NCBI GenBank assembly: GCA_965204335.1
Contig: OZ241982.1
Span: forward strand, 2,183,462-2,247,461
DNA: 64,000 bases
Direction: 5' to 3'
Origin: Dehalococcoidia bacterium
Lineage (GTDB): Bacteria; Chloroflexota; Dehalococcoidia; Bin125
The notes below the pieces were generated by a model. It saw only the letters and a list, made by a program, of their open reading frames with translations, had not been told where the DNA came from and did no database searches. A program made the translations under genes and the position numbers. Shown piece by piece: positions 7,206 through 64,000 of the stretch (position 1 is the first letter of the stretch; every line of letters starts with the position of its first letter).

Positions 7206-7367
7206 CGGTGACCGTCTCCCGCCCTGCCGCGCATCGTCGTCGACGCAGAGGTGCGTCTCCTCAGCTTAGGAGCAATTCGTGCACAGTCCAATCAGTCGAG
7301 ACACACAGCGATGCCGGGATCAGTGAGTCAACAACCGATCACCGTCGCTTCGGCGTGGACGCGCCGG

Positions 7368-7992
7368 CTAACTCGCCGCTTCGCTGGCCGCCTCAGCCTG
7401 TTGTTCGCGTTCCTCGGCCTCTGCCGCCGCCTTCGCCTCGGCGATCGCTTTGGCTTTCACCTTGTCCTCGGCCACGATGATGGACATGAACCGACCCTCA
7501 GTCGAGATCGGCTTTTCGATGATCGTCGGCACCTCGTTCTGCTCAAGCGTCTCGAGCATTTCGTGGATGCGTTCCTGCCCGATCTCTCGGTGCGTAATCT
7601 CGCGTCCACGGAAGGTGATCGAGATCTTGACCTTGTCGCCGTTGCGCAACAACCGGGCGGCGGTCCGACCCTTGGCCTCCATGTCGTGTTTGCCGATGTT
7701 CGGACGCATCTTGATCTGATGCAGGGCGGAGCCCTTCTGTCGCCGCCGGCCCTCGCGCTCCCGCTTCGACTGTTCGTACTTGAAGCGGCCGTAATCGAGC
7801 ATTTTGGCGACGGGCGGACGGGCGTTGGGCGCGACCTCGACGAGGTCCAGGCCCTGCGCGCGTGCGAGGTCCAGCGCCTGCACGGTCGGCATGATCCCGA
7901 GCTGTTCGCCTTCAGCGCCGATCACGCGCACTTCTCGGATGCGAATCGCTTCATTGACGCGCTGTTCTCTCTGTTCTCGTTGATCCTTGACT
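7368..7992 (-). CDS. infC: translation initiation factor IF-3
   Basis: IF-3 N- and C-domains (NEAIRIREVRVIGAEGEQLGI...VKISITFRGREITHREIG); conserved residues continue upstream of the GTG used by the ORF track, and the start is probably TTG 7992 or another non-canonical codon after SD AAGGAG 7995..8000. Confidence 0.85.
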
Positions 7993-8102
7993 GCCAGGGC
8001 AAAGCTCCTTCACTGCGAGCCGGTCTGCGGTTGGCTCTGTTGAGGCAGATGGTAGGTCCGCCGGCGCGCGGTTTCAAACAAGAGGGGTCCGATTTGGGAC
8101 CG

Positions 8103-12213: not shown

Positions 12214-12290
12214 TGGTGGGCGATACTGGACTTGAACCAGTGACCTCTGCGATGTCAACGCAGCGCTCTAGCCAACTGAGCTAACCGCCC
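12214..12290 (-). tRNA. tRNA-Val (anticodon GAC)
   Basis: Reverse complement GGGCGGTTAGCTCAGTTGGCTAGAGCGCTGCGTTGACATCGCAGAGGTCACTGGTTCAAGTCCAGTATCGCCCACCA folds as a cloverleaf; anticodon loop TTGACAT; CCA is encoded; lies directly upstream of thrS on the same strand. Confidence 0.85.
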
Positions 12291-12335
12291 GCACCTGTGC
12301 GGTGTCGATTCATCGTATGCCTCGCCCGTCGGCTT

Positions 12336-12440
12336 GGTCAACGAACCGGGCGTCCGAGGCCGGCCCGCACCGTTCGATCGACAGCCACTACAATCAGTGT
12401 CAACTCGTTGACGTCCCGCCGCTCGTTGGCTAGCTTGCAG
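12336..12440. promoter_or_regulatory. candidate divergent promoters for the tRNA-Val/thrS (-) and tRNA-Lys/Leu (+) transcripts
   Basis: Plus strand: TTGACG 12407..12412, a 17-nt spacer, then TAGCTT; minus strand: TTGACC (complement of 12336..12341), a 17-nt spacer, then ATACGA about 18 nt before the tRNA-Val 5' end; the -10 matches are weak. Confidence 0.25.
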
Positions 12441-12598
12441 GCCAAGCCGAGATTGGGACGGCTACGAACAACCGAACAACGAGCGGGTTTGGGGAAGCAA
12501 CGTTGAGCCAGCCAGCCACCCGGCGTGGGAGTCGCGCAGTCGGTGTAAGATTGGGAGACGCCCCGGCGCAGCCGGCGCCGGTGGCGATCCACGCGCGG

Positions 12599-12674
<76 letters not shown>

Positions 12675-12760
12675 GCTATCCCAACGAAATGAGCAGTTTG
12701 TCAGCCCCTTCGCACCTCTCGCCTGAGCACGCCGGCTCGCCGGCTCGTCGCAGGCATGCA

Positions 12761-12845
12761 GGGGAAGTGTCGGAATTGGCAGACGAGCATGATTTAGGAT
12801 CATGTGCCGCAAGGCGTAGGAGTTCGAGTCTCCTCTTCCCCACCA
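12761..12845 (+). tRNA. tRNA-Leu (anticodon TAG)
   Basis: 85 nt with a long variable arm; GGGGAAG/CTTCCCC acceptor stem; anticodon stem CATGA/TCATG with loop TTTAGGA; AGGAG-TTCGAGT-CTCCT T-arm; encoded CCA. Confidence 0.85.
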
Positions 12846-12920
12846 ACGCTCGCCCGGCCGGGAATCGGTCGGTCGTGTTGCGAACTTTGGAGCCACAGGC
12901 GTCGCTAAAGGAGTGCTCTT

Positions 12921-13959
<1,039 letters not shown>

Positions 13960-13967
<8 letters not shown>

Positions 13968-15180
13968 GAACGAACAACCCGACGTCGTCGAGGAGGAGCA
14001 GCAGTCGCAAGATGAGGCTGCCGCCGGCACGATGACGCCCGAACAGATGCGCGCCGCTGCGGCCGCGTCCGTCGGTCAGGCTGCCGCGGCCGTCGCCGAC
14101 TACCAGGGCGGCGGACGTACCGAGCCGCACGACAACACATTGCTCGAGGTCTCCGACCTGAAGATGTACTTCCCGGTCACCGCCGGCCTGCTGCTCAAGC
14201 GCAAGGTCGCGGACATCAAGGCCGTGGACGGCATCTCCTTTGCCGTCCGCGAAGGCGAGACGCTCGGGCTTGTGGGCGAATCCGGCTGCGGCAAGTCCAC
14301 GACCGGCCGGGCGATCCTGCAGCTCTATCGGCCCACCGCCGGTCAGGTGTTCATGTCCGAGCCGCAGTACACCTCGCACATCGGCGCCGATGAAAACGGC
14401 GTTGAGGAGGCGACCACTCCCGCCCTTGGTGATGGCGGCCCGGTTGACCTCACGACGCTTGCCGGCCGAAACCTGCGCGCTTATCGGCGTCAGATGCAGA
14501 TGATCTTCCAGGACCCCTATGCGTCCTTGAATCCGCGCATGAGCGTTGGCAGCATCGTCTCCGAGCCGATGGTGATCCACGGCCTGCAGAGGGGTCGGCG
14601 CAAGGAGCGGGTACGAGAGCTACTCGAGACGGTCGGTCTCAACCCCTACTTCGCCAGCCGCTACCCGCACGAGTTCTCGGGCGGACAGCGCCAGCGCATC
14701 GGCATCGCCCGCGCCCTCGCGGTCGAGCCGGCGTTCATCGTCTGCGACGAACCCGTCTCGGCGCTTGACGTGTCGATTCAGGCGCAGATCATCAACCTGC
14801 TCGAGGACCTGCAGTCCGACTTCGGTCTGACCTACCTGTTCATCGCCCACGACCTCTCGGTGGTGCGCCACATCTCGCACCGCATCGCGGTGATGTACCT
14901 GGGCAAGATCGTCGAACTGGCGCAGTCGGACCGCCTCTACGAGAATCCGCTGCATCCGTACACGCAGGCGCTGATCTCCGCTGTTCCGATTCCCGACCCG
15001 GCGTTGGAGCGGCGACGTGAGCGCCTGATCCTGACCGGCGACGTGCCCAACCCAATCGCGCCGCCGCCGGGCTGCAACTTCCATACGCGCTGTCCGATCG
15101 CGATCGACATCTGCCGCGAGGAAGACCCCGAGTGGCGAGAGATCGTCGAGGACCACTTCGTCCGCTGTCATCGCGTCTAG
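13960..15180 (+). CDS. oligopeptide/dipeptide ABC transporter ATP-binding protein (OppF/DppF type) with a ~65-aa acidic/Ala-rich N-terminal extension
   Basis: [36 protein letters not shown]; its start overlaps the previous gene by 8 nt. Confidence 0.85.
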
Positions 15181-18568: not shown

Positions 18569-18948
18569 GATCCGGTCTGCTCCACTGAGTTTACTCTGAC
18601 AGGAGTTCGCCGCCGCTGGTGATAGAATTATGGTCGGTCGTGCTAGATGGGGAGCTAGCGGTGCCCTGTACCCGCAATCCGCTCTAGCGGGGTTGAACTC
18701 CTGAGTTGAGGGCGGCGACATGAGAACTACCGACGCCAAGCAGTGATGAAGTCTGGGTCCCGCGCGGCGGCCCGCCGTGAACCCCGTCAGGTCCGAGAGG
18801 AAGCAGCGGTAAGCGGTTGACAGGTCGGGTGACGCGGGAGTGCCTGGACGGAGCCGGCTAGCGGAGGCAAGCTCATGGTGGCGTTCGAAGCCAGGTGCAC
18901 GACCACACCTTCTTCCTCACGTCTCCCGTGCACCACTCGAGGCGCAAC

Positions 18949-32513: not shown

Positions 32514-33505
32514 TGGTCCGCCTCTTCCGACGCCTGCGGCGTGACACCGACTCAGAGCCGGACGAAGTCGAGGCGCAGGAAGTCCGCGACGAGTACCGCC
32601 GCAGCGTTGCCAACACCAGGCGCGGGCAGCTGGGCGCGCTCAAGCGTGTCTTCTCCCGCTCGCGCGTTGATGAGGACTTCTGGGAGGAGCTCGAGGAGAC
32701 GCTCATCCTCGGAGACGTCGGCGGCGCGACCTCGGCCCAGTGGGTCGAGGAACTGCGGGAGGAGTCCCGAGGACTCGACGCTTCCTCCGTCCGCGGACTC
32801 TTGCGTGACCGCATGATTGACGGGTTGGAGCGTCCACAGACCGATGGTGCGCTGTGGAGCGCGAAGAACGGCGTCGGTTCGCCGGCCGCGCCGCATGTCG
32901 TGCTGGTCGTCGGCGTCAACGGCGCCGGCAAGACCACGTCGATCGCCAAGCTCGCGCACGCCTACCAACAGGAGGGCAAGTCGGTCATCCTCGCCGCGGC
33001 CGATACCTTCCGCGCTGCCGCAATCGAGCAACTGCAGACCTGGGGCGAGCGGATCGATGCGCCGGTTGTTGCCCATCAGCCGGGCTCCGATCCCGGCGCC
33101 GTCGCCTATGACGCCATCGAGTCGGCGCTGGCCAGAGCGGCCGACATCGTGCTGATCGACACCGCCGGCCGCTTGCAGACCCAGCGAAATCTGATGGCCG
33201 AGTTGGGCAAGGTCCGACGCGTGGTCGAGTCGAGACACGCCGGCGCGCCGCACGAGGTGCTGCTCGTGATCGACGCAACGAGCGGACAGAACGGACTCAG
33301 CCAGGCGCGTCAGTTCTCGCAGGCCACCGGAGTGACCGCCGTCTGCCTGGCCAAGCTGGACGGCACCAGCAAGGGCGGCATCGTCTTCGCGATCGCGGAG
33401 GAACTCGGCATCCCCGTGCGCTTCGCCGGCACCGGCGAACGGCTCGGCGACATCGCGCCGTTCGATGCCCCGGCGTTCGTCGACGCACTGCTGTCCGACG
33501 ACTAG
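32513..33505 (+). CDS. ftsY: signal recognition particle receptor FtsY
   Basis: Acidic N-terminus followed by an NG domain ([39 protein letters not shown]); conserved rnc-smc-ftsY neighbourhood. Confidence 0.9.
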
Positions 33506-36853: not shown

Positions 36854-37536
36854 TGCACCCGCGCGACGCGGCGGTGGTTTCGTTCGACTGTTACGGCACA
36901 TTGATCGACTGGCATTCGGGAGCCAGGGCCGCTGTCGAGGCGATTCCGGAACTGTCCGGCGTGGATCGCGATGCGCTGATCGCCCGGCGGATCGAGGTCG
37001 AGCTGGAGGTCGAGCACGAATACTACCGACCGTACGACCAGGTGCTCGCGCTCTCCATCCAGCGCACCGCCGCCGACTTCGGCGTCCAACTGAACGACGA
37101 CACGGCTCGATCCTTCGCCGATTCGATCGGCGCCTGGCCCCCGTTCCAGGACGCCGGCGGTTTCCTCCGCCGACTGGCAACGGTCGGCACGCCGTTGGCC
37201 ATCCTGTCCAATGTCACCAGGCAGAGCCTCGGCGTCAGCGTGCGCAAACTTGGAGCGCGGTTCGACCAGCTTGTGACGGCGGAGGACGTGCGGAGCTACA
37301 AGCCCGACCACGATCACTGGCGAGCCCTCTACGACTCGCGCGGCATCTCCCCGGATCGGCAGCTGCATATCGCCGGATCGATCGCCCACGACATCCGGCC
37401 GGCCTCCCAACTCGGCGCAACGACCGTCTGGGTACGGCGCCATCACGAGCCGATCCCCGACGATGTCCAACCCGACCTGATCGTCCAGTCGCTCGCAGAA
37501 CTCGGCGACTACTGGCGACTCCACTACTCGCGGTAG
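36850..37536 (+). CDS. HAD-superfamily hydrolase (haloacid dehalogenase type II-like)
   Basis: Motif I VVSFDCYGTLIDW; the ATG at 36850 overlaps the dinB stop by 4 nt; upstream part of track ORF 36010..37536 is run-on. Confidence 0.8.
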   Translation: MMHPRDAAVVSFDCYGTLIDWHSGARAAVEAIPELSGVDRDALIARRIEVELEVEHEYYRPYDQVLALSIQRTAADFGVQLNDDTARSFADSIGAWPPFQDAGGFLRRLATVGTPLAILSNVTRQSLGVSVRKLGARFDQLVTAEDVRSYKPDHDHWRALYDSRGISPDRQLHIAGSIAHDIRPASQLGATTVWVRRHHEPIPDDVQPDLIVQSLAELGDYWRLHYSR

Positions 37537-38375: not shown

Positions 38376-38422
38376 CTCTCCCCCCGCGCCAGCGGGGGGA
38401 GATGCCGCAGGCAGAGGGGGGG
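38376..38422 (+). repeat. GC-rich double-hairpin extragenic repeat, copy 1 (CTCCCCCCGC-GCCA-GCGGGGGGAG AT GCCGCAGGC AGAGGGGGG)
   Basis: A 10-bp perfect stem, then a TGCC/GGCA mini-hairpin, then a G-tract; lies 32 nt after the cupin stop in a convergent gap. Confidence 0.85.
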
Positions 38423-43506: not shown

Positions 43507-43551
43507 CTCTCCCCCCGCTTTGCGGGGGGAGATGCCGAAGGCAGAGGGGGG
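43507..43551 (+). repeat. GC-rich double-hairpin extragenic repeat, copy 3
   Basis: CTCTCCCCCCGC-TTT-GCGGGGGGAG AT GCCGAAGGC AGAGGGGGG, 15 nt after the malic-enzyme stop. Confidence 0.85.
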
Positions 43552-52901: not shown

Positions 52902-55598
52902 ATGACCACCTCCGAGTCCCCCTGGCAATCGACGTTGGCACGCGCGTCAGACGCCGCCGGAGCGGACGACTGGCTGGAAACGAACGACTGGATCGACTCC
53001 TTGCGGGATGTCGCGAGGCGTCGTGGACCCGAGCGAGTGTCGCGCCTGCTGCAGACGCTGCAAATCGAGGCGCAGCGCTCCGGCATCCGGTTGCCCGTCA
53101 CCTCGCAGACGCCCTACGTCAACACGATCCCAATCGAGAAGCAGCCGCCCTATCCGGGCGATCTCAACATCGAGCGGCGGATCAAGTCGATCATTCGCTG
53201 GAACGCGATGGCGATGGTCGTCGAGGCGAATCAGATCAATCACGGGATCGGAGGGCATATCTCGACCTACGCCTCGGCCGCCACGCTCTACGAGGTCGGA
53301 TTCAACCACTTCTTCCGCGGCCAGGACCATGCCTCAGGCGGAGACCTGGTGTACTTCCAGGGCCATTCTGCGCCCGGCATCTATGCGCGCGGTTATGTCG
53401 AACGCCGGCTCTCTCCCGATCGGCTGCACAAGTTCCGCCAGGAGCTGTCCGGCGGGCTGCCGTCCTACCCGCACCCGTGGCTGATGGATGACTACTGGCA
53501 GTTCCCCACGGTCTCCATGGGGCTCGGACCGATCCAGGCGATCTACCAGGCTCGCTTCATTCGTTACCTCGAAAACCGCGATCTGCTTCCCGCGACCGAC
53601 CGGAAAGTCTGGTGTTTCCTCGGCGACGGCGAGACCGACGAGCCGGAATCGCTCGGTTCAATCGCGCTCGCCTCTCGCGAGGAACTGGACAACCTGATCT
53701 TCGTCGTCAACTGCAACCTGCAACGGCTTGACGGTCCGGTGCGCGGCAATGGACAGATCATCCAGGAGCTCGAAGCCGTGTTCCGTGGGGTCGGCTGGAA
53801 CGTGATCAAGGTCATCTGGGGCTCCGAGTGGGACCAACTGCTGGCACGCGACGAGCACGGCTTGCTCGTGCAACGCATGGGCGAGGTCGTCGACGGCGAG
53901 TACCAGAAGTACACGGTCGCCGGCGGCAGCTACATCCGCCAACACTTCTGGGGCGTCGACCCTCGGCTGCTGCGCATGGTCGACGACATCTCCGACGACG
54001 AGCTCTGGCGCATGAGACTGGGCGGGCACGACCCGCTCAAGGTCCATGCGGCCTACAACGCCGCCGTCAACCATCGCGGCGCGCCGACCGTGATCCTGGC
54101 CCGCACGATCAAGGGCTACGGGCTGGGCGAAGCCGGCGAAGGCCGTAACATCACCCACCAGCAGAAGGAACTCAACGAGCGAGAGCTGATGCAGTTCCGC
54201 GACCGATTTGCGATCCCCCTGTCGGACGCCGAGGTCGTGGGAGCGCCGCTCTATCGACCGGCGAGCGAGAGCCGCGAGGCCAACTACATCGCCGAGCGCA
54301 AGGCGACGCTCGGCGGCCACGTCCCGGAGCGCCGAGCGCCCAGGTCGAACCTGACTGCACCGCCCGACGAGACGTTTTCGGAGTTCCACGAGGGAACCGG
54401 CGAGCGTGAAGCGTCCACCACCATGGGATTCGTGCGGATGCTGAGTCGCCTGATGCGCGATCGCGAACTCGGCCAGCACATCGTCCCGATCGTGCCGGAT
54501 GAGTCGCGCACGTTCGGCATGGAAGGCATGTTTCGCGAGTTCGGCATCTACGCCTCGACCGGCCAGCTCTACGAGCCGGTCGATTCCGACCGCCTGCTCT
54601 TCTACAAGGAGTCCCGCGACGGCCAGATCCTCGAAGAAGGCATCACCGAGGCCGGAGCGATGTGTTCGTTCATGGCCGGCGGCACGGCGTATTCGTCGCT
54701 TAAGGTGCCGATGGTTCCGTTCTTCATCTTCTACTCGATGTTCGGATTGCAACGCTTCGGCGACCTCGCCTTTGCCGCCGGAGACGCACACACGCGCGGC
54801 TTCCTGATCGGCGCGACGGCCGGTCGCACCACGCTGCACGGCGAAGGCCTGCAGCACCAGGACGGGCACAGCCACGTGCTCGCTTCGACGATCCCGAACC
54901 TGGTCGCCTATGACCCGGCCTACGCCTACGAGATCGCCGTGATCGTGCAGGACGGCATTCGCCGCATGCACGATGAAGACGAGAGCATCTTCTACTACAT
55001 CACGGTCGAGAACGAGTCGTATGTGCAGCCGCCCATGCCCGAGTCCGAGATCGTTCGCGAGGGCATCCTCCGCGGCATCTACCCGCTGGTGCCCTGCGAA
55101 GCTCCGCAAATCCGGTTGTTCGGCAGCGGACCGATCCTCAACGAGGTTCGACGAGCGCAGCAAATCCTCCGCGACGATTTCGATGTCCGCGCAGACGTCT
55201 GGTCGGTGACCTCGTACACCGAGCTCAGACGCGAAGCGCTGCAGACCGATCGCTGGAATCGGCTGCACCCGTTCGAGGAGCGGCGCACCTCATGGCTGGA
55301 GTCCTCGCTCGACGGCTGCGACGCGCCAATCGTCGCCGCAACCGACTACACCTCCTCATTGCCCGACCTGGTGGCTCGCTGGCTGCCCGGTCCGTTGACG
55401 GCACTGGGCACCGACGGTTTCGGCCGGTCCGATACCAGGGAAGCGCTGCGCGACTTCTTCGAGGTTGACGCCAATCACGTCGTGTGGTCCGCTTTGAGCG
55501 CGCTCAGCCGCCGCGACGAGATCGACGGCGACCTGCTGCTCAAGGCGCGCGACACGCTCGGCATCGACCCAACCCGTCCCGACCCGATGCTGCGTTAG
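52902..55598 (+). CDS. aceE: pyruvate dehydrogenase E1 component (homodimeric type)
   Basis: 898 aa; AceE-type N-terminus and ThDP-binding region (GHISTYASAATLYEVGFNHFF...GDGETDEPES). Confidence 0.95.
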   Translation: MTTSESPWQSTLARASDAAGADDWLETNDWIDSLRDVARRRGPERVSRLLQTLQIEAQRSGIRLPVTSQTPYVNTIPIEKQPPYPGDLNIERRIKSIIRWNAMAMVVEANQINHGIGGHISTYASAATLYEVGFNHFFRGQDHASGGDLVYFQGHSAPGIYARGYVERRLSPDRLHKFRQELSGGLPSYPHPWLMDDYWQFPTVSMGLGPIQAIYQARFIRYLENRDLLPATDRKVWCFLGDGETDEPESLGSIALASREELDNLIFVVNCNLQRLDGPVRGNGQIIQELEAVFRGVGWNVIKVIWGSEWDQLLARDEHGLLVQRMGEVVDGEYQKYTVAGGSYIRQHFWGVDPRLLRMVDDISDDELWRMRLGGHDPLKVHAAYNAAVNHRGAPTVILARTIKGYGLGEAGEGRNITHQQKELNERELMQFRDRFAIPLSDAEVVGAPLYRPASESREANYIAERKATLGGHVPERRAPRSNLTAPPDETFSEFHEGTGEREASTTMGFVRMLSRLMRDRELGQHIVPIVPDESRTFGMEGMFREFGIYASTGQLYEPVDSDRLLFYKESRDGQILEEGITEAGAMCSFMAGGTAYSSLKVPMVPFFIFYSMFGLQRFGDLAFAAGDAHTRGFLIGATAGRTTLHGEGLQHQDGHSHVLASTIPNLVAYDPAYAYEIAVIVQDGIRRMHDEDESIFYYITVENESYVQPPMPESEIVREGILRGIYPLVPCEAPQIRLFGSGPILNEVRRAQQILRDDFDVRADVWSVTSYTELRREALQTDRWNRLHPFEERRTSWLESSLDGCDAPIVAATDYTSSLPDLVARWLPGPLTALGTDGFGRSDTREALRDFFEVDANHVVWSALSALSRRDEIDGDLLLKARDTLGIDPTRPDPMLR

Positions 55599-55607
55599 GG
55601 AATCAGC

Positions 55608-56993
55608 ATGACGACCACCGCATCCGGCGCCGGCGCTGTTCTGCTCCCCGACCTGGGCGAGGACATCGAAGAAGCCGATGTGCTCCAGATCTACGTGAGC
55701 GTCGGCGACGAGATCGTCCTGGAACAGCCGATCGTCGAGATCGAGACGGAAAAGGCCACGCTCGACCTGCCGTCGCCGACGGCCGGCGTCGTCACCGAGA
55801 TTCATGTGCGCGCAGGAGACACGATCCGGCCCGGCGATCCGGTCCTCAGCGTCGACTCCGGCACATCCCCTCCCCCGCCTGCCCGGTCCCCTTCGCCTCC
55901 CGTTGAGGCAGCGCCCGAGGAGCCGGTCGTCAATTCGTCTTCGCCGCCGGTCGAGACGGCAGCCCCGGTTGAGCCCGAGCCGGCGCCAACTCCTGAACCG
56001 AAAGTCGATCGCGATCATCCCGCGCCGATCCTGCGCGTCCCGCCGGCCGCTCCGGCGCCGCTGGTGGAAGGCGACCTCGAATCTCGCCCGGTGTTTGCGT
56101 CGCCCTCGGTGCGGCGACTCGCGCGGGAGATCGGCGTCGACATCCGCACGGTCCGGGGCAGTGGCCCGGGCGGCAGGATTGACCAGGGAGACATCAAGCG
56201 TCACGCACGGGAGACGCCGTCGCAAACGCCCGATTCAGGGCATTCCGAGCGCTCTCCGGGTCCGTTGCCCGACTTCTCCGAGTTCGGCGCGGTCGACCGG
56301 ATCCCCATGAGCCGTTTGCGCCGCACGATCAAACGCAACATGACCGTCTCCTGGCACGAAGTGCCGCACGTCACGCTCTTCCACACGGCCGACGTCACCG
56401 AGTTGGAGCAGGTCCGCCGCGACTACCGTGATCGCGCCGAGGAGGCCGGCGGCCGCCTGACGATCACGGCGATCCTGCTCAAGATCACGGCCGCCGCGCT
56501 CCTCGCGCACCCGCACGTCAATAGCTCGATCGACGCAGAGAACGACGAACTCGTGCTCAAGAAGTACGTCAACGTCGGCGTCGCGGTTGATACCCCCCGC
56601 GGACTGGTCGTCCCCGTAATCCGCGATGTCGACAAGAAGAACATCATTGAGATATCGGTCGAGTTGACCGATATCTCGGAGCGCGCTCGCTCCGGCGAAC
56701 TGGGGCTCCAGGACTTCCGTGGGAGCAGCTTCACCGTGACCAATCTCGGCGGCATGGGAACCGGTCACTTCACGCCGATCATTCATCACCCGAACACCGC
56801 CATTCTTGGGATCGGCCGAGCGGAGAAGCGGCCCGAATGGTCCGACGTGCTCGACGGCTGGGAGCCGCGCAGCATCCTGCCGATGTCGTTCACCTTCGAC
56901 CACCGCGTCATGGACGGCGCGGACGGAGCCCGGTTCATGACCTGGATCGCCGATGTGATCCGCCAGCCGCTCGTGCTGGCGCTCGGGGGTTAG
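55608..56993 (+). CDS. dihydrolipoamide acetyltransferase (2-oxo acid dehydrogenase E2)
   Basis: Lipoyl domain (IETEKATLDLPSP), Pro/Ala linkers, PSBD, and a catalytic domain with DHRVMDG. Confidence 0.9.
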   Translation: MTTTASGAGAVLLPDLGEDIEEADVLQIYVSVGDEIVLEQPIVEIETEKATLDLPSPTAGVVTEIHVRAGDTIRPGDPVLSVDSGTSPPPPARSPSPPVEAAPEEPVVNSSSPPVETAAPVEPEPAPTPEPKVDRDHPAPILRVPPAAPAPLVEGDLESRPVFASPSVRRLAREIGVDIRTVRGSGPGGRIDQGDIKRHARETPSQTPDSGHSERSPGPLPDFSEFGAVDRIPMSRLRRTIKRNMTVSWHEVPHVTLFHTADVTELEQVRRDYRDRAEEAGGRLTITAILLKITAAALLAHPHVNSSIDAENDELVLKKYVNVGVAVDTPRGLVVPVIRDVDKKNIIEISVELTDISERARSGELGLQDFRGSSFTVTNLGGMGTGHFTPIIHHPNTAILGIGRAEKRPEWSDVLDGWEPRSILPMSFTFDHRVMDGADGARFMTWIADVIRQPLVLALGG

Positions 56994-56996
56994 CCC

Positions 56997-58430
56997 GTGG
57001 TCTCCGCCGGCGCAGCCGCCAACGGCGACTTCCATCTCGTCGTGCTCGGCGCCGGACCGGGCGGCTATCCCGCCGCCTTCCACGCCGCCGAACGCGGACT
57101 CGATGTCACCTTGATCGATACCCGTCCACAGCCCGGAGGCATCTGCCTCTATGAGGGCTGCATTCCCTCAAAGGCGCTGCTGCACGTGGCCAAGCTGTTG
57201 CGTGAGGCTCGCCACGCCTCGGAGTGGGGCATCAACTTCGCCGAGCCGACCATCGACGTTGACGCCTTGCGCGAATGGAAGGACGGCGTCGTCCGCAAGA
57301 TGACCAACGGACTGGGCCTGCTCCGGCGTCAACACAACGTGCGCTATCAGCAGGGCTTCGGGCGCATCCGCGATGCCAACCAGCTCAATGTCGAGTCCAA
57401 CGGCGAGGTCATACCGGTCGACTTCGACGCTCTGATCGTCGCGACGGGATCAACGCCGGTCGTGCCCCGCTCACTGCAGATCGAGTCCGAACGCGTCATG
57501 GACTCAACCGACGCGTTGAATCTCACCGACGTGCCCGGCTCCCTGCTGGTGATCGGCGGCGGATACATCGGCCTCGAGCTGGGAACCGTGTACGCCGAGC
57601 TCGGGTCGGAAGTGACCGTGGTCGAGGCATTGCCGCAGATTCTCACCGGCGTTGAGCGCGACCTGGTGCGTGTGCTGGAGCGAAGCCTGCGCACTCGGCT
57701 CAAGGACACCCGGGTCGACACCTCGGTGGTCTCGCTCACGGAAGTCGAGGACGGCGTTGAAGCGGTCATCGCCGACAAGGAGGGCGTCGAGAGCACCGAG
57801 CGCTTCGACCGCGTCCTGATCGCGACCGGCCGCCGGCCCAACAGCGCCGGCCTCGGCCTGCATCGCACGCAGGCGCATGTCGATTCGCACGGATTCATCG
57901 TCACCGATCAACAACGTCGGACCGCAGAATCATCAATCTTTGCGATCGGCGATGTCGCCGGCGAACCGATGTTGGCGCACAAGGCGACGGCCGAGGCGTC
58001 GGTGGCGGTAGAGGCGATCATCGGCGAACCGTCGGCGTTCCGCCCGCTCGCCGTCCCGGCGGTAATCTTCACCGATCCGGAGATCGCCTGGTGCGGGCTC
58101 ACCCAGGCCGAGGCCACAGGATTGGATATCGAAGCGACGACCGTCAGCTTTCCCTGGGCCGCGTTGGGCCGAGCTTCAGCCTCGGGCCGCAACGACGGCC
58201 TGACCCGCCTGGTGATTGAGCGCGGATCCGAGCGTGTGCTGGGCATGCAGGTCGTCGGACCGGGCGCCGGCGAGCTGATCGGCGAGGGCGTGCTGGCCGT
58301 CGAGCTGGGCGCGCGCGCGGCGGACCTGGCCGAGTCGATCCACGCCCATCCCACCCTCAACGAGTCGATCATGGAGGCCGCCCAGGTCTTCTTCGGCCGC
58401 AGCCCTCACTACCTCACCCGGCGTCGTTGA
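56997..58430 (+). CDS. lpdA: dihydrolipoyl dehydrogenase (E3)
   Basis: GAGPGGY...GGICLYEGCIPSK redox-active disulfide; HAHPTLNE. Confidence 0.9.
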   Translation: MVSAGAAANGDFHLVVLGAGPGGYPAAFHAAERGLDVTLIDTRPQPGGICLYEGCIPSKALLHVAKLLREARHASEWGINFAEPTIDVDALREWKDGVVRKMTNGLGLLRRQHNVRYQQGFGRIRDANQLNVESNGEVIPVDFDALIVATGSTPVVPRSLQIESERVMDSTDALNLTDVPGSLLVIGGGYIGLELGTVYAELGSEVTVVEALPQILTGVERDLVRVLERSLRTRLKDTRVDTSVVSLTEVEDGVEAVIADKEGVESTERFDRVLIATGRRPNSAGLGLHRTQAHVDSHGFIVTDQQRRTAESSIFAIGDVAGEPMLAHKATAEASVAVEAIIGEPSAFRPLAVPAVIFTDPEIAWCGLTQAEATGLDIEATTVSFPWAALGRASASGRNDGLTRLVIERGSERVLGMQVVGPGAGELIGEGVLAVELGARAADLAESIHAHPTLNESIMEAAQVFFGRSPHYLTRRR

Positions 58431-58440
58431 GGCTGCCGCG

Positions 58441-59319
58441 ATGCTGATTGAGCTGGGCGGGCAGACGCTCGACGCCACCGACCGCTGCCATGTCATGGGC
58501 ATCCTCAACGTCGCCACCGACTCCCCGGTGGCCGATTCCATTGTCGCCGTCGGTGACGCGCCTCGGCGGGCAGCCGAGTTGCGGGACGCCGGCGCGTCGA
58601 TCATCGACGTTGGCGCTCAATCGACTCGTACCGGCGCGGCGGAGATCTCGCCGGACGAGGAAATTGCGCGTGTCGCGCCGGTGGTTGAATCACTGATCGC
58701 GGAGGGACATCTGATCTCCGTCGACACCTGGACCGCTTCGGTCGCCCGGGCCGCCGTCGCGGCCGGCGCACATCTGATCAACGACATCACCGGCGCCGAC
58801 CCGGACACGGTGCAGGTCGCCGTCGAGACCAACACGCCGATCGCCGTAATGCACATGCGCGGTCGCCCGCAGCGCCACCGCGAGGCGACCCACCAATACG
58901 ATGATGTCAGCCTCGAGGTGCGCGACTATCTCGGCAGCCGGGCACGCCAGATCAAGGCCGCCGGCGCGCCGGAGGTCTGGCTCGATCCCGGCTTCCAGTT
59001 CGGACGTGGACTCGAAGACAATCTGCGCCTGCTCCTGGATTTGCCCAACCTCGCCAGGCTCGGACATCCGGTCCTGATCTCGGCGTCGCGCAAGGGATTC
59101 CTGGCCGAGATGCTGGGTCACGGAGAGCTGCGCTCCCACGATGCCCAGGACAAACCGGGCATGCTGGAGGCGACGGTCGCCTTCAACGCGCTGGCGGCCT
59201 GGATGGGCGCGCACGTCGTCCGCGTCCACGACGTTCAGGAGGTTGCCTGGGCGCTCAACGTCTCGGCAGCCGCACGAGCAGTACGCCGAGCCCAGGGCGC
59301 GGTAGACTCGATCCGATGA
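58441..59319 (+). CDS. folP: dihydropteroate synthase
   Basis: VMGILNVATDSP ... DVGAQSTRTG ... pterin-binding barrel. Confidence 0.85.
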   Translation: MLIELGGQTLDATDRCHVMGILNVATDSPVADSIVAVGDAPRRAAELRDAGASIIDVGAQSTRTGAAEISPDEEIARVAPVVESLIAEGHLISVDTWTASVARAAVAAGAHLINDITGADPDTVQVAVETNTPIAVMHMRGRPQRHREATHQYDDVSLEVRDYLGSRARQIKAAGAPEVWLDPGFQFGRGLEDNLRLLLDLPNLARLGHPVLISASRKGFLAEMLGHGELRSHDAQDKPGMLEATVAFNALAAWMGAHVVRVHDVQEVAWALNVSAAARAVRRAQGAVDSIR

Positions 59320-59343
59320 TCCTGCGCACAAGGAGGTGACGCC

Positions 59344-59544
59344 ATGCCGGTCTATACCTATCACTGCGAAGAGTGCAGCGAGAGTTTCGAGAAAATCCGC
59401 CCGATGTCGCGCGCCTCGGAACCCCACCCCTGTCCGAGCTGCGAGGCGGAGGCGGAGCGAGTGGTCTCCGGCATCTTCGAGAACAACTCGACCAAGAACC
59501 GCTCCGCCAACTTCCCCAAGCGCAAGCGCTACACCAACTGGTAA
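59344..59544 (+). CDS. FmdB-family zinc-ribbon protein
   Basis: MPVYTYHCEECSESFE...CPSCEAEAERVVS. Confidence 0.75.
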   Translation: MPVYTYHCEECSESFEKIRPMSRASEPHPCPSCEAEAERVVSGIFENNSTKNRSANFPKRKRYTNW

Positions 59545-59582
59545 CCGTCAAGCAGCAGACGCGCCACTGTCCGGAGAGCCGC

Positions 59583-60698
59583 ATGAGCCAGCGCCCGCCC
59601 GACCCGATTCCGTTCCCACGCGACCGAATCCAACGCGGAGATCGGCGGAGTGCGCCGCCGCCTCCGCAGCAGCAACAACAGCCATCGGGGCCGGTCATCT
59701 ATTCGGCCTCGGGCCAACCGATGCGCCGAGTCCAGCAGCAACCGGCGGCGCCTCCGCCGACGGAGCCCGTGCCGCTTCGACGACCGCCGCCTCCGGCGCA
59801 ACCCGCCGAATCAACGGACGCGTCCGAGCCTCAGGAGCCGCAGGGACTGCACGGCCACGTCGCCGCCGTGATCGACTCGACCGACGCGACCTTTACTCGG
59901 GATGTGATCGAACGCTCGCACGAGTTGCCGGTCATCGTCGACTGTTGGGCGCCGTGGTGCGGACCCTGCCGCATTCTGGGACCAATCCTCGAGAAGCTCG
60001 CCTACGAGCGCGACGGACAGGTGCAACTCGTCAAGGTCAATACGGACGAGAATCCGCAGGTCGCCCAGGCGCTCCAGGTTGAAGGCATTCCGGCCGTCTT
60101 CGCATTCGTCGGCGGACAGCTCGTGAACAAGTTCGTCGGGGCCATCCCGGAGGAACAGGTTCGATCGTTCTACGACTCGCTTGTTCCCTCGGAGGCCGAC
60201 ATCAAGGCGGCCGAGGGCTACCGGATGATGCAGGAGAACCAGATCCCCATCGCCCGACTCCACTTTGAGTCGGCGTTGGAGGAGGACCCCAACCACGAAC
60301 CGGCCGGTGTTGGGCTCGCCGCGATCCTGGTGCGCATGGGAGAGAACGACCGCGCGAAGGAGCTGGCCGGCCGATGGCCCAACCATCCGATGAGCAAGAG
60401 CGTGCTGACCTCGATGGAGCTCACGGCTGCGCTCGAGGGCTACGAGGCCGACGAGATTCGCCGCGCCGCCGGCGCGCATCCCGACGACGCCATGGCGAGA
60501 TATCGCCACGGGTGTCTGCTGGCGGTCGAGAGCCAGTGGATGGAAGCGCTCGACGAAATGCTGGAGTCGGTCAGAATCGACAAAACCGCCGGCGACGAAG
60601 CAGCCCGCAAGACCTTACTCGGCATCTTCGGAATGCTCGGAGACGACCAGCCCGTCGTGGTCGAATATCGCAAGCGCCTCGGCCGCCTGCTCTTCTGA
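59583..60698 (+). CDS. thioredoxin-domain protein with a C-terminal TPR-like region (YbbN/CnoX-like)
   Basis: WCGPC active site followed by a helical repeat domain; preceded by a Pro/Gln-rich region; ATG 59583, and the upstream part of track ORF 59373.. is run-on. Confidence 0.8.
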   Translation: MSQRPPDPIPFPRDRIQRGDRRSAPPPPQQQQQPSGPVIYSASGQPMRRVQQQPAAPPPTEPVPLRRPPPPAQPAESTDASEPQEPQGLHGHVAAVIDSTDATFTRDVIERSHELPVIVDCWAPWCGPCRILGPILEKLAYERDGQVQLVKVNTDENPQVAQALQVEGIPAVFAFVGGQLVNKFVGAIPEEQVRSFYDSLVPSEADIKAAEGYRMMQENQIPIARLHFESALEEDPNHEPAGVGLAAILVRMGENDRAKELAGRWPNHPMSKSVLTSMELTAALEGYEADEIRRAAGAHPDDAMARYRHGCLLAVESQWMEALDEMLESVRIDKTAGDEAARKTLLGIFGMLGDDQPVVVEYRKRLGRLLF

Positions 60699-60702
60699 TC
60701 CG

Positions 60703-60747
60703 CTCTCCCCCCGCGCAGCGGGGGGAGATGCCGCAGGCAGAGGGGGG
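60703..60747 (+). repeat. GC-rich double-hairpin extragenic repeat, copy 4
   Basis: CTCTCCCCCCGC-GCA-GCGGGGGGAG AT GCCGCAGGC AGAGGGGGG, 5 nt after the stop of the thioredoxin-TPR gene. Confidence 0.85.
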
Positions 60748-60825
60748 CGCTCCCGATGCGCAGTGACGCTGATACCGAAGGATGCAGGCCTTCCGATGGC
60801 CTCGGCACGTTCGTAGGCCCCGGCC

Positions 60826-61158
60826 CTACGCCTCGTCCTCTTCCGATCCCCGCGTGTACCACTCGCGAGTCCGCCACCAGGGCATCGGGGTTTCGTCGTC
60901 GATCGGCTTGGCCCGGTTACGAATCGCCCAGATGAACACCACCAGCGTCGCGCCGACGAAGCAGAAGGGGATGAAGAGCGAGGTCGCGAGCGTTTCGTCG
61001 GAGACGTGAATCGATTCCTCTTCGTCTCCGCCCGCTTCGGCGATCTGCAAGGGCTCATGGTCAACGGCGTGCTCGGCTGCCGCCGCCGCACCCAGCGTCA
61101 GCGCACTCAACCCGGCGACCACCGCCAGGACGAGCAGGAATCGTCGAAGCTGCGCCAT
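60826..61158 (-). CDS. small secreted/membrane protein (signal peptide plus C-terminal TM)
   Basis: ATG 61158 preceded by GAGGGG at a suitable spacing; MAQLRRFLLVLAVVAGLSALTLGAAAAAEHAVDHEP...FIPFCFVGATLVVFIWAIRN; lies in an otherwise intergenic stretch and is divergent from 61261; the remainder of track ORF 60826..62163 is antisense run-on. Confidence 0.4.
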   Translation of the reverse strand: MAQLRRFLLVLAVVAGLSALTLGAAAAAEHAVDHEPLQIAEAGGDEEESIHVSDETLATSLFIPFCFVGATLVVFIWAIRNRAKPIDDETPMPWWRTREWYTRGSEEDEA

Positions 61159-61260
61159 TGGATCACACCCCTCAACCGTTCCGACTATCGTAACTCGCCC
61201 TAGTGTCGCGCCAACCGCTGGCATGGTCAATCTCGGCCGGGCCAACGCTAGACTACGGAC

Positions 61261-62940
61261 ATGCACCCACCGACCAAATTCTCCCTGCTTGACGCCGAAG
61301 GGCGGGAACAGCAGTTCCCGCCGGACGGACCCGTGCTGCTGGCGCTCGTCAAGGAGGACTGCGACACCTGCAACCTGACCCTCCCTCTGCTCGAAGCCGT
61401 CCATCGAGACACCGCAGAAGGACTGGACGTCTGGGTCGCCGTCCAGAAGACGGACGACATCCCCGTCCTCAAGCAACGTCACGACCTGACGATGCCCTTG
61501 CTCGACGACGACGCGCTCGATCTCTCCTACGAGACCGACATCGACACGGTTCCGACGCTCTTCCTCTACGACGCGGAGCAGAACTGCACACTGCAAACCT
61601 TCGGCTTCGACAAGCACGAGTGGCGCGAGATCGCGGGCGAGTCGATGACCCTGGCCGGGCGTCCCGGCGTCGAGACCTCGATTGACTGGGAGTCGCTGCC
61701 CGAGCAGCGGCCCGGCTGCGGCGCCCGCAACTACGAGCCGGGCGTCTACGAGCGCCTGCAGGCGCTCAAGAGCGGGGATCTGCTCTCGCGACTGGTCGAC
61801 CTCGCCTCGAGCGACGACATCCACGAGTTCATGTACGACCAGGGCTACACCGACGGCTTCCCGGTCGTGCCGCCGACTCGCGAGCGCGTCTGGAAGATGC
61901 TCCAGGGCACGACCCGGGATCCGCAGGAAGAAGTGGCGATCGTGCCGCCCAACCTGGCGCCGATCACCGTCGAGAAGGTCGCGATCAACGCCGTCATGGC
62001 AGGCGCGAAACCCGAGTATCTGCCCGCGATCATCGCCCTCGTCGAGACCGCCTGCACCGAGACCTTCAACATCCACGGCGTCCTCGCAACCACGATGGGC
62101 GCGACGCCGGTTGGCATCTTCAACGGACCGATCCGCGACCGGATCGGCATGAACTACCTCCACGGAGCGCTCGGCTCAGGCAATCGAGCCAACGCGGCAA
62201 TCGGGCGAGCCCTCCGGCTCTGCGCCCGCAACGTCGGCGGCAGCTTGCCCGGCGGCACCGACCGCGCCACGCAGGGCGGCCCGCATCGATTGACCATGAA
62301 CTTCGCCGAGAACGAGGACGCCAGCCCCTGGGAGTCCCTCGCCGTCGAGTACGGCTTCGAGCCGACCGACGACGTCGCCACGCTGATGGCGATGTCCGGC
62401 GGACCGGCCACGATCGCCGACGAACGCTCCCGCGACGGCAGAGGCATGGCCGGCACGCTGGCGATGTCCATGAGCTGCATGCAGGATCCCAAGTCACCCA
62501 TGGTCGACACCCTGGTCGTACTCTCGCCCGATCACGCCGGCATCTTCGGCCGCTCCGGCTGGTCCAAAGACGATGTGCGCGAGTGCATCATGGAGGAGAC
62601 GGCCATCCCGCTGAAGTACCGTCTCCGCTCGGACGACGCCGGCTGCGGTCTGCCACCGTCCGTCGTGGAGCGGTTCGGCGGCGAAGCCGCGCTCGACCTG
62701 CCGGTGCCCAAGTTCCGCGATAAGTCCAACATCATCCTCGTCGTCGCCGGCTCCCCCGCCGCCAAGTTCTCCACCATCCTCGGCGGCTGGGCCGGGGGAG
62801 TCTATTCCACGCCGACCAGCGCCAGGATCGGATCAGGCGGCGCAGAGGAGATCCGCGGCGCCCGAGACGCCGACATGGACAAGCGCGACTCCGGCGGTCG
62901 CGATCTCGGTGCGTTCGAGCCAAACGTCCGCCGGACTTGA
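61261..62940 (+). CDS. uncharacterised protein: N-terminal thioredoxin-fold (TlpA/redoxin-like, CDTC) domain fused to a ~400-aa conserved domain of unknown function
   Basis: 559 aa; LLALVKEDCDTCNLTLPLLE thioredoxin-fold CxxC; the C-terminal domain (HEFMYDQGYTDGFPVVPPTRERV...LAPITVEKVAINAVMAGAKPEY) is paralogous to the ORF starting at 63697. Confidence 0.7.
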   Translation: MHPPTKFSLLDAEGREQQFPPDGPVLLALVKEDCDTCNLTLPLLEAVHRDTAEGLDVWVAVQKTDDIPVLKQRHDLTMPLLDDDALDLSYETDIDTVPTLFLYDAEQNCTLQTFGFDKHEWREIAGESMTLAGRPGVETSIDWESLPEQRPGCGARNYEPGVYERLQALKSGDLLSRLVDLASSDDIHEFMYDQGYTDGFPVVPPTRERVWKMLQGTTRDPQEEVAIVPPNLAPITVEKVAINAVMAGAKPEYLPAIIALVETACTETFNIHGVLATTMGATPVGIFNGPIRDRIGMNYLHGALGSGNRANAAIGRALRLCARNVGGSLPGGTDRATQGGPHRLTMNFAENEDASPWESLAVEYGFEPTDDVATLMAMSGGPATIADERSRDGRGMAGTLAMSMSCMQDPKSPMVDTLVVLSPDHAGIFGRSGWSKDDVRECIMEETAIPLKYRLRSDDAGCGLPPSVVERFGGEAALDLPVPKFRDKSNIILVVAGSPAAKFSTILGGWAGGVYSTPTSARIGSGGAEEIRGARDADMDKRDSGGRDLGAFEPNVRRT

Positions 62941-63028
62941 GTCGGGATCAGGGGATGTGGAAGAGTAGACTGCGTTAGACACACGGCGCGCCGCAACCCT
63001 GCAGACGGCGCGTTGATGGAGAGGTCCA

Positions 63029-63559
63029 ATGGTTACCCAGATCCTTGACCCAACCGACGAACGAGTGCCGATCAAGCGGCAGCTCACGCCGCGCCCCGAG
63101 GCGCTGCATGGGACGATCGCCCTGCTCGACATCTCCAAGCCGCGCGGCGACGTCTTCCTCGACCGACTCGAGGAGCTCCTGCATGAGCGCGCGCCGGGAG
63201 TCGAAACCAGGCGATTCATGAAGCCGACCGTCGCCAAGCCGGCACCGCAACCGATCAAAGATGCGATCCTGGAGGAGTGCGACTTCGTCATCGAAGCGCT
63301 CGCTGATTGAGGATCCTGCACGACGTGCAGTGTGCACGACACCGTTTTCTTCGAACTGCAGGGCAAGCCCAGCGTCTTCGTCGCCACCTCTGAGTTCATC
63401 AAGGCCGCCAGCCACCAGGCCGAACGCCTCGGACTCGAAGAGGTGCGCCGAGTCTTCATCCCGCATCCGATGCAGGACCGCACGGACGCCGAGATGCACG
63501 AACACGCCGAACGCTTCGTCGACGAAATCCTCGACACCTTGATGGCCCCCGTCGAGTAG
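63029..63559 (+). CDS. candidate selenoprotein with a U-G-S-C motif (in-frame TGA 63308..63310 read as Sec); the ORF track splits it into 63029..63310 and 63332..63559
   Basis: Both fragments share one frame with a single TGA between them; readthrough gives ...DFVIEALAD-U-GSCTTCSVHDTVFFELQGKPSVF...; SD GGAGAGG before ATG 63029 and none before GTG 63332; stem-loop immediately 3' of the TGA. Confidence 0.6.
63311..63345 (+). promoter_or_regulatory. SECIS-like stem-loop immediately downstream of the in-frame UGA
   Basis: CUGCAC-GAC-GUGCAG (63316..63330), with alternative GUGCA-GUG-UGCAC pairing extending to 63337; starts 5 nt after the UGA. Confidence 0.45.
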
Positions 63560-63570
63560 TCCACCGGTCC

Positions 63571-63601
63571 CCTCACCCTCGCACTTGATGCAGGGGTGAG
63601 G
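63571..63601 (+). terminator. hairpin CCTCACCC-N15-GGGTGAGG after the selenoprotein-candidate stop
   Basis: 8-bp GC-rich stem 12 nt after the stop; no clear U-tract. Confidence 0.35.
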
Positions 63602-63620
63602 CCCTCCGGTCCCACTTCCC

Positions 63621-63665
63621 CCCTCCCCCCGCTCCGCGGGGGGAGATGCCGAAGGCAGAGGGGGG
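63621..63665 (+). repeat. GC-rich double-hairpin extragenic repeat, copy 5
   Basis: CTCCCCCCGC-TCC-GCGGGGGGAG AT GCCGAAGGC AGAGGGGGG. Confidence 0.85.
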
Positions 63666-63696
63666 CTCCCCCTCCACCGAACAGCCACCTAAGGCG

Positions 63697-64000
63697 CCAC
63701 CGTGCCCGCCGAATCCGACACCTTCACGCGAATCATCGAAATCGCCGAACACGACGACGTCTACGAGTTCATGTTCGCGCAGGGCATTACCGACGGCCTG
63801 CCCGTCGTCCCGCCGACCCGCGAGCGAGTCGACCGCATGCTCGCCTTCGCTCCGGACCACTGGAGCGAATCACAGAAGATCGTCGCCACGCTCCCGCCCA
63901 ACCTGGCGCCGATGACGGTCGAGAAGGCCGCCATCAACGCCGTCATGGCCGGCTGCAAGCCCGAATACTTCCCAACCGTGCTGGCCTCGGTCGAGGCCGC
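63697..64000 (+). CDS. paralog of the 61261..62940 C-terminal domain (partial, runs off the window end); appears to lack the thioredoxin-fold N-domain
   Basis: A GTG near 63697 (VPAESDTFTRIIEIAEHDDVYEFMFAQGITDGLPVVPPTRERVDRML...LAPMTVEKAAINAVMAGCKPEY) aligns by eye with residues ~200-290 of the 61261 protein. Confidence 0.6.

Follow-up and report, generated by a model that had tools for sequence, protein, structure and literature searches.

What is the function of the UGSC selenoprotein, and with which protein does it work? This question is raised by one end of a 64,000-nucleotide stretch of DNA, here called the window, from a Dehalococcoidia bacterium (assembly GCA_965204335.1, contig OZ241982.1, positions 2,183,462 to 2,247,461, forward), in which an open reading frame interrupted by an in-frame TGA stands between two paralogous genes. 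UGSC was described by Zhang and Gladyshev as a selenoprotein of unknown function, has been noted in Hyphomonas neptunium and in an Olavius symbiont (PMC1976440, PMC2398784), is common in aquatic metagenomes, and is among the most abundant families of the GOS data, with 255 selenocysteine (Sec) forms against 21 cysteine forms (PMC2398784). Reviews up to 2026 list its function as unknown (PMC1976440, PMC9312934, PMC13188914). An earlier note on this DNA, made from its letters, proposed that a small U-x-x-C protein and the large proteins on both sides of it form a selenium-dependent thiol/selenol redox module. The sequence features listed in that note are all there, a few of their coordinates needing slight correction. 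The conservation and fusion evidence reported here supports that core interpretation, and the function that it implies would be open to direct test. We find that UGSC and the unnamed protein family beside it, called X below, are obligate-looking partners, and we hold with moderate confidence that the two may constitute a two-component, Sec-dependent selenol/thiol reductase fed by a fused disulfide-reductase domain.

The interrupted reading frame is a full-length UGSC-family selenoprotein. Its product matches PF24696 with an E-value of 3e-44 and 151.6 bits (cutoff 25) over profile positions 1-171 of 172, and NF041046 with 153.6 bits (cutoff 125). Both this match and the paralogy of the flanking proteins, from which the earlier note started, are far beyond chance. 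The frame is conserved on both sides of the TGA, which is directly followed by GSCTTCSVHD. The Sec position is TGA in all 84 related loci (80 loci from GTDB species and 4 from close relatives) and in 44 of the 47 readable UGSC genes from metagenome loci with stand-alone X, so that an exchange of Sec for Cys in orthologous loci, which the earlier note suggested looking for, almost never occurs. In the wider family the core is constant as [A/G]-D-U-G-S-C-x-x-[C/W]-S-x-H-D, the third cysteine of the motif being Trp in many members, and the constancy of D-U-G-S-C puts Sec in the attacking, N-terminal position of a U-x-x-C dyad. Downstream of the TGA, RNAalifold finds a consensus hairpin in 78 distinct sequences, a candidate for the bacterial Sec insertion sequence (SECIS). 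The hairpin has 6 bp and a GUG loop, begins 16 nt downstream of the U of the UGA, and shows in Gammaproteobacteria a C-to-U change that preserves a G-U pair; its position and loop G match the usual description of such elements. ARAGORN and Rfam find no tRNA-Sec in the window, nor was a gene of the Sec machinery identified among the window's genes, part of which were annotated. As to whether UGSC itself could be a relative of thioredoxin, its comparison with the thioredoxin-X protein described below by hhalign gives an 8-column D-C-x-x-C match only, at 0.3% probability, so that UGSC is not detectably a thioredoxin-fold homologue at the level of sequence profiles. A UGSC profile finds nothing useful among PDB sequences.

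The evidence that carries our reading is the conservation of the gene pair across genomes. The earlier note had named co-localisation in related genomes as a test, and the adjacency is conserved whichever of the two genes the search starts from. A scan of one genome per GTDB species detected at least 478 UGSC-encoding stretches, and in the best 80 loci, which were analysed, X lies upstream of UGSC on the same strand in 71. The X alignment ends no more than 400 nt from the UGSC start in 65 of the 80, the distance typically being 7-120 nt, and a thioredoxin (Trx) domain is detected in 66, contig ends cutting most of the others. The hosts are Chloroflexota (Dehalococcoidia, Tepidiformaceae), Gamma- and Alphaproteobacteria, Myxococcota, Binatia, Acidobacteriota and, among Actinomycetota, an actinobacterium. 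In the reverse test, metagenome contigs were scanned with a profile of stand-alone X, and UGSC is directly adjacent on the same strand, either upstream or downstream, in 61 of 80 loci, a Trx domain being present in only 3 of the 80. These counts also amend the earlier note, which had pictured UGSC as redox partner of the paralogue without Trx domain. UGSC, X and the fused Trx domain stand as a conserved unit, but extra downstream X paralogues occur in only 11 of the 80 UGSC-anchored loci, all of this Dehalococcoidia clade. The gene that is kept beside UGSC is Trx-X, or an X of any kind, rather than the Trx-less paralogue in particular. Around the pair no further gene is conserved, since neighbouring families reach at most 24 of 80 UGSC-anchored and 10 of 80 stand-alone-X loci. 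As the upstream thioredoxin-TPR and dihydropteroate synthase (DHPS) genes are moreover confined to close relatives, the core module is X plus UGSC. In the window the functional unit is probably a two-gene cassette of Trx-X and UGSC, extended in this lineage by stand-alone X paralogues from 63702 onward.

The partner encoded upstream of UGSC in the window, Trx-X1, is a protein of 559 residues (AF2 model with pLDDT 90.1 and pTM 0.79) with more than 7,000 homologues, whose source names are 'TlpA family protein disulfide reductase' or 'redoxin domain-containing protein'. It has no match in Pfam or NCBIfam, matches at E<=10 included, and its N-terminal domain likewise has none to the AhpC-TSA, Redoxin or Thioredoxin models of Pfam, even at E<=10. 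Many orthologues carry precomputed PF00578 or PF08534 matches, and residues 1-131 show the thioredoxin fold with insertions of the TlpA/ResA type. The CDTC dyad recognised in the earlier note is present as C34-D-T-C37 at the N-terminus of helix 1 (modelled as residues 35-51). The N-terminus of the protein, MHPPTKFSLLDAEGREQQFPPDG, is without a hydrophobic segment, and the protein has no signal peptide or transmembrane segment; because an extracytoplasmic signal is missing, the domain has the fold of TlpA/ResA but is not their functional equivalent. Between Trx and X lies a linker block modelled with pLDDT 94-98, in which P151, G152, C153 and G154 are invariant in 100 Trx-X sequences. Cys153, a residue peculiar to proteins of Trx-X architecture, is a candidate for a relay cysteine.

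The X domain that follows was considered in the earlier note to be about 400 residues long and unassignable; it is indeed unassigned, but its length is about 350 residues. Its family counts 4,814 cluster representatives (50% identity) at E<=1e-3 and is recognised by the motifs TDGxPVVPPT, AINAVMAG(C), NxHG..TT, GxGNRANxxxGRALRL, NxGG, AExE..SPW, PEH and VAG. Neither Pfam-A (2025 copy) nor NCBIfam release 20 has a model that matches the X of the window protein or of 10 diverse representatives, and a 49-sequence X profile finds no match among PDB sequences. X modelled alone reaches a pLDDT of 90.9 and a pTM of 0.90, and Foldseek with this model returns nothing at E<=1e-3 among solved structures, TM-scores being at most 0.25. 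The weak matches, to alpha+beta sub-domains of the chorismate-mutase/YjgF kind, class I fumarase, Toblerone-fold amidohydrolases and HK97/encapsulin A-domains, indicate common sub-domain motifs rather than a shared fold. An iron-sulfur hydro-lyase of the class I fumarase type was considered and rejected, as X shows neither the shared fold nor the three cluster-ligand cysteines. Nothing in these HMM and structure searches, which the earlier note had recommended, places X in a well-characterised non-redox family.

Downstream of UGSC, the window end cuts the second paralogue, X2, which is 58% identical to residues ~177-262 of Trx-X1. That this paralogue lacks a Trx domain, as the earlier note thought, is borne out by an in-frame TAA stop at 63690-63692, which excludes an N-terminal thioredoxin domain; its start is not at 63697 but at a GTG at 63702. 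The context beyond the window was taken from a relative (locus L001) whose Trx-X protein is 90% identical, and whose X2/X3 stretch, at 12425-14622, was compared with the window. There the X2 orthologue has 369 aa and is followed, with a 4-nt overlap, by a third paralogue, X3, of 363 aa, and then by genes for a methyltransferase, an MFS transporter and an acyl-CoA dehydrogenase; on the upstream side lie genes for pyruvate dehydrogenase (PDH) E1-E2-E3 and DHPS.

Another line of evidence comes from protein fusions. Of 150 proteins that represent clusters of the X family, 15 have UGSC before X (U-X), 8 are fusions that end in UGSC (6 X-U and 2 multi-X-U), 26 are of the Trx-X kind, and 7 are tandem multi-X proteins that lack UGSC. 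Fusions of the Sec type seem truncated at the TGA, and those of the Cys type are full-length with CGSC. The Trx fusion defines one large X clade, to which the protein of the window belongs. In another protein, P0260, X is preceded by the catalytic domain of ferredoxin:thioredoxin reductase (FTR; PF02943, FeThRed_B, E 2e-21) with its CPC...CPC...CHC motifs. This FTR-X architecture is common to seven clusters at 90% identity, and in all five contigs examined, from two of these clusters, the gene lies immediately 3' of a TGA-split UGSC gene. Thus, Trx and FTR are two unrelated disulfide-reducing modules that occupy the same position of X, each with UGSC adjacent, and no other comparative evidence speaks as strongly as these two independent input-module fusions for a thiol/selenol electron relay with X-UGSC at its accepting end. 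The five FTR-X contigs are L165-L169 (for example L168, 6444-8386), and in L168 and L169 genes for an AhpC/TSA redoxin and for DoxX are found close by. Tandem X-X or X-X-X polypeptides of ~710-740 aa (P0258, P0270, P0275, P0323) were also seen, as were arrays of two or three X genes, some alternating with UGSC (L092, L114 and L160, the last as X-U-X-U); tandem proteins and arrays point to oligomeric assemblies.

How might such a relay run? In the mechanism that we favour, reducing equivalents would enter via the fused CxxC domain or, in other lineages, from ferredoxin via the FTR-like 4Fe-4S/disulfide domain, and would reach the U-x-x-C centre of UGSC through exchange reactions of the thiol-disulfide or selenenylsulfide kind. 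From there they would pass to the X domain with its MAGC and YTxC cysteines, where the substrate would be reduced, X-UGSC thus acting as a terminal Sec-dependent reductase. It is from sequence comparison that we infer this electron transfer from the Trx or FTR domain to UGSC and X. The Sec might attack an oxidised cysteine pair of X, as in a redoxin, or an X-bound substrate, as in a catalytic centre, and the near-exclusive use of Sec favours the catalytic role. Among stand-alone X sequences, 97-98% have the MAGC cysteine (AINAVMAG-C) and 86% the YTxC cysteine (Y-T-x-C-x-A-E-x-E), against 85% and 58%, respectively, among Trx-X sequences; within Trx-X, C34 is conserved at 100%, C37 at 97%, C153 at 100% and C265 at 94%. 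In the models the MAGC position falls in a short loop between X helices 77-86 and 91-104, and the YTxC cysteine lies on a beta-strand, which as predicted is the usual setting for a reactive and a resolving cysteine. The other residues conserved across the family, apart from a W, are polar or charged (D of TDG, TT, N, R-A-N, G-R, N-x-G-G and E-x-E), and such an Arg/Asn/Glu-rich set suggests that the conserved surface of X may bind an anionic small-molecule substrate. We further entertain, as a tentative proposal, that X-UGSC could be an unrecognised class of two-subunit selenoenzymes, with a catalytic or substrate-binding subunit whose fold lacks a solved relative. In aerobic bacteria of soil and water it would serve the Sec-dependent reduction of a small metabolite, probably a carboxylated one. 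Such an enzyme would be the functional counterpart of the anaerobic glycine/proline reductases, fed by disulfide reductases of the thioredoxin or ferredoxin type.

Several observations weigh against this Sec-dependent reductase. The bases of the candidate SECIS also encode the constrained T-C-S-V-H codons, and the single-sequence fold of the region is no better than that of shuffled sequences (z 0.34), for which reasons we rate the hairpin at 63324-63338 as consistent with a SECIS rather than proven. X is without adjacent UGSC in ~24% of the sampled stand-alone-X loci, and UGSC is without a nearby X in 9 of 80 loci; in these nine, an X-family HMM finds no divergent X within +/-5 kb, and the two that were looked at further have unrelated neighbours (SecA, ABC transporter). 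In Rokubacteria/Methylomirabilota, a stand-alone X sits between mreB and csp genes with no UGSC adjacent. Such loci (L170-L172) have X at 7001-8032, between an mreBCD-pbp2-rodA cluster and two cold-shock protein genes, and this X retains both MAGC and YTYC. X is evidently able to work with another reductant. The commonest neighbours of the UGSC-anchored loci are acyl-CoA dehydrogenase (24 of 80), SDR (20), MFS (19) and CoA-transferase III (16), that of the stand-alone-X loci is a luciferase-like oxygenase (monooxygenase; 10 of 80), and TctC and NMT1 are also among the common families. The acyl-CoA dehydrogenase, SDR, CoA-transferase and luciferase-like families are abundant and multi-copy and give no firm clue to a substrate, so that we base no substrate claim on them. 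Finally, both family cysteines are replaced in the X1 of the window, by Ala249 and Asn347, and the five orthologues closest to it in the alignment carry the same replacements; a thiol mechanism centred on X fits X1 only on the assumption that X2 or X3 compensates.

That assumption bears on the paralogues of this lineage. X1 retains the CxxC of its Trx domain, the linker Cys153 and Cys265; X2 retains the MAGC cysteine; X3 lacks it and has neither family cysteine. The losses in X1, the MAGC of X2 and the restriction of the extra paralogues to this clade suggest sub-functionalised subunits of a hetero-oligomer, in which X1 may serve mainly as electron-input or scaffold subunit and X2 may supply the catalytic cysteine. 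The tandem X-X proteins found elsewhere are consistent with an X oligomer.

The favoured reductase has to be weighed against other explanations of the same gene pair. Of these, the one that survives best, which we nevertheless consider unlikely, holds that X is a non-reductase enzyme, for example an isomerase, racemase or hydrolase, whose two cysteines would serve as acid/base or nucleophile in catalysis, and that UGSC and Trx or FTR merely keep these cysteines reduced or turn the enzyme on and off, in redox regulation or repair. Among stand-alone X sequences without adjacent UGSC, MAGC is retained in 118 of 119 and YTYC in 113 of 119, so that these cysteines matter even where the selenoprotein is missing; the neighbouring genes are catabolic, not stress-related, and FTR and thioredoxin are classic regulators of target enzymes. 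A Sec partner in more than 90% of cases, fused in both orders, would however be unusually costly for mere maintenance, and Sec normally occupies catalytic positions. Improbable, too, is a metalloenzyme or metallochaperone in which a metal or iron-sulfur centre would be shared by X and UGSC and liganded by the two X cysteines together with the Sec/Cys (and His) of U-G-S-C-x-x-[C/W]-S-x-H-D. The UGSC proper clade has U-x-x-C-x-x-C followed by H-D, and one X protein has a marginal NifU-like C-terminal domain (E 0.0085). Nevertheless, the third UGSC cysteine is Trp in many members, which weakens the idea of a U-x-x-C-x-x-C cluster motif, the window's X1 has neither family cysteine, and the fusion to Trx or FTR points to dithiol-disulfide chemistry.

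Highly improbable in our judgement is an aerobic analogue of glycine/D-proline reductase, in which X, as a proenzyme, would cleave itself between Gly and Cys of MAGC, the resulting pyruvoyl group would bind an amine substrate, and UGSC would take the part of PrdB/GrdB: its Sec would attack the alpha-carbon, and the Se-S bond would be reduced again by thioredoxin. The reaction logic of the Grd/Prd enzymes is established, and the parts are similar in outline, with UGSC as the small U-x-x-C selenoprotein, X as the larger subunit with its nearly invariant Gly-Cys, and an electron donor of the thioredoxin type. However, neither UGSC nor X gives a match to the GRDB or Gly_reductase models of Pfam at E<=10 (HMMER filters may hide very weak matches) or has a sequence relative in the PDB, the Gly-Cys of X is modelled between two helices and not in a beta-turn, the hosts are mostly aerobic heterotrophs, and the window's X1 has Ala at the position of the MAGC cysteine. 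Lastly, we give almost no credence to a single redox island over 56997..64000 (dihydrolipoyl dehydrogenase, FmdB, Trx-TPR, Trx-X, UGSC and X2), for although all genes are on the + strand and several have CxxC or FAD-disulfide chemistry, the dihydrolipoyl dehydrogenase (E3) gene ends a PDH E1-E2-E3 operon, DHPS intervenes, between Trx-TPR and Trx-X stand a small divergent ORF and a hairpin element of the REP type, and the lack of conservation (Trx-TPR with UGSC in 13 of 80 loci and DHPS in 14 of 80, all close relatives) largely refutes it.

The same counts apply to the wider redox-themed neighbourhood of the earlier note. The FmdB zinc ribbon and the WCGPC Trx-TPR protein that it placed upstream are both present (Table 1), but the Trx-TPR gene, found in just 13 loci, is not counted in the module, and what remains of the theme is synteny, not function. 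The start of Trx-TPR is probably the ATG at 59583 and not 59373, because the orthologue has 369 aa. The divergent ORF at 60829-61158 (-) has hydrophobic N- and C-terminal segments, is 109 aa long in the relative L001 without a Pfam match, and probably encodes a small membrane protein. The REP-like intergenic element, with the core CTCTCCCCCCGC-N4/5-GCGGGGGGAGATGCCGMAGGCAGAGGGGGG, has four exact or near-exact copies in the window (38392-38421, 43522-43551, 60718-60747 and 63636-63665, all +), with 0 expected by chance; one follows closely on the stop codon of Trx-TPR, and another falls in the UGSC-X2 spacer. This spacer, of 142 nt, folds into three GC-rich hairpins (z -4.4) and has no T tract, and these hairpins may punctuate the operon. 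Positions 1-58430 are core chromosome of Dehalococcoidia type, with moeA, pheT, a biotin carboxylase gene, thrS, lepA, genes for a DinG-like helicase-exonuclease, smc and a DUF4015 protein, the SRP RNA (18638-18902), three tRNAs (12214-12845), and PDH E1/E2/E3 followed by folP; the G+C content is ~63-70% over 55000-64000. Two ARAGORN calls, a 92-nt tRNA-Arg(tcg) at 33390-33481 (+) and a 91-nt tRNA-Ser(cga) at 37069-37159 (-), stay below the gathering score of the Rfam tRNA model and are probably false positives in GC-rich DNA.

Table 1. Features at the X-UGSC locus, in positions of the window
Feature	Position	Strand	Remarks
FmdB zinc ribbon	59344..59544	+	TIGR02605, 55.5 bits
WCGPC thioredoxin with TPR_20 (YbbN/CnoX-type)	~59583..60698	+	PF00085, E 1e-23; PF14561, E 2e-20
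Small divergent ORF between Trx-TPR and Trx-X	60829-61158	-	
Trx-X1 gene	61261..62940	+	ORF, 559 aa; Trx fold, structured linker, X domain, low-confidence C-terminal tail
TlpA/ResA/DsbE-like thioredoxin-fold domain	61261..61653	+	aa 1-131
CxxC dyad	61360-61371	+	C34-D-T-C37
P-G-C-G linker motif	61711..61722	+	aa 151-154; invariant in 100 Trx-X sequences
X domain	61786..62835	+	aa ~176-525; unnamed family
UGSC-family selenoprotein	63029..63559	+	176 aa; PF24696, NF041046
Sec codon TGA	63308-63310	+	in-frame, within D-U-G-S-C-T-T-C-S-V-H-D
Candidate bacterial SECIS hairpin	63324..63338	+	CGUGCA-GUG-UGCACG; RNAalifold
X2, stand-alone X paralogue without Trx domain	63702..64000	+	GTG start; cut by the window end

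The X family and its partnership with UGSC appear to be undescribed, apart from one record of 2008. There, a sentence and a supplementary figure record a 'UGSC/Unknown_1' fusion (PMC2398784), and we infer that Unknown_1 is presumably the X domain. A systematic partnership of UGSC with X, Trx-X or FTR-X is not described in the UGSC literature searched, a full-text literature search for PF24696 returned nothing, and one for a fusion of selenoprotein and ferredoxin-thioredoxin reductase returned only reviews that list UGSC without function or partner. In X, UGSC has a near-obligatory, concrete partner to test, and the natural UGSC-X fusions and Cys variants make its function open to direct experiment. 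The X family is large enough to deserve a name and an HMM, and the annotation 'TlpA family protein disulfide reductase' seems to describe only the first quarter of the Trx-X protein. If the substrate chemistry is new, the system could prove categorically new.

Compared with known systems, the module resembles a redoxin-coupled Sec/Cys reductase with an unnamed, putatively catalytic partner that lacks a structural relative. Within the UGSC family, the window's member is full-length and above the curated cutoffs, and Sec forms dominate here as they do in GOS. TlpA, ResA and CcmG (DsbE) are extracytoplasmic, membrane-anchored proteins that act in cytochrome maturation, whereas the Trx domain of the window, which carries neither a signal nor an anchor sequence, is joined to a cytoplasmic domain of 350 aa and missed by the thioredoxin-type HMMs of Pfam. 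Catalytic domains fused to their own redoxin are known from MsrA/B-Trx fusions, from plant APS reductase with its C-terminal redoxin and from peroxiredoxin-glutaredoxin hybrids; in these thiol reductases the catalytic cycle ends in a disulfide or selenenylsulfide, and Sec and Cys variants exist. The X system shares this design logic, but X is unrelated to them in sequence and fold, and a dedicated Sec protein is added between or beside redoxin and catalytic domain. It is also like glycine/D-proline reductase (GrdA/B/E, PrdA/B) in being multi-subunit and in combining a small selenoprotein, of U-x-x-C or C-x-x-U type, with recycling linked to thioredoxin; unlike that system, it shows no detected sequence similarity to it, lives in aerobic hosts and has no GrdC/D-like genes nearby. 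The catalytic subunit of FTR (PF02943), finally, is absent from the window but in a small clade is fused before X at the very position that the Trx domain holds here, which provides comparative evidence that X-UGSC takes its electrons from disulfide reductases.

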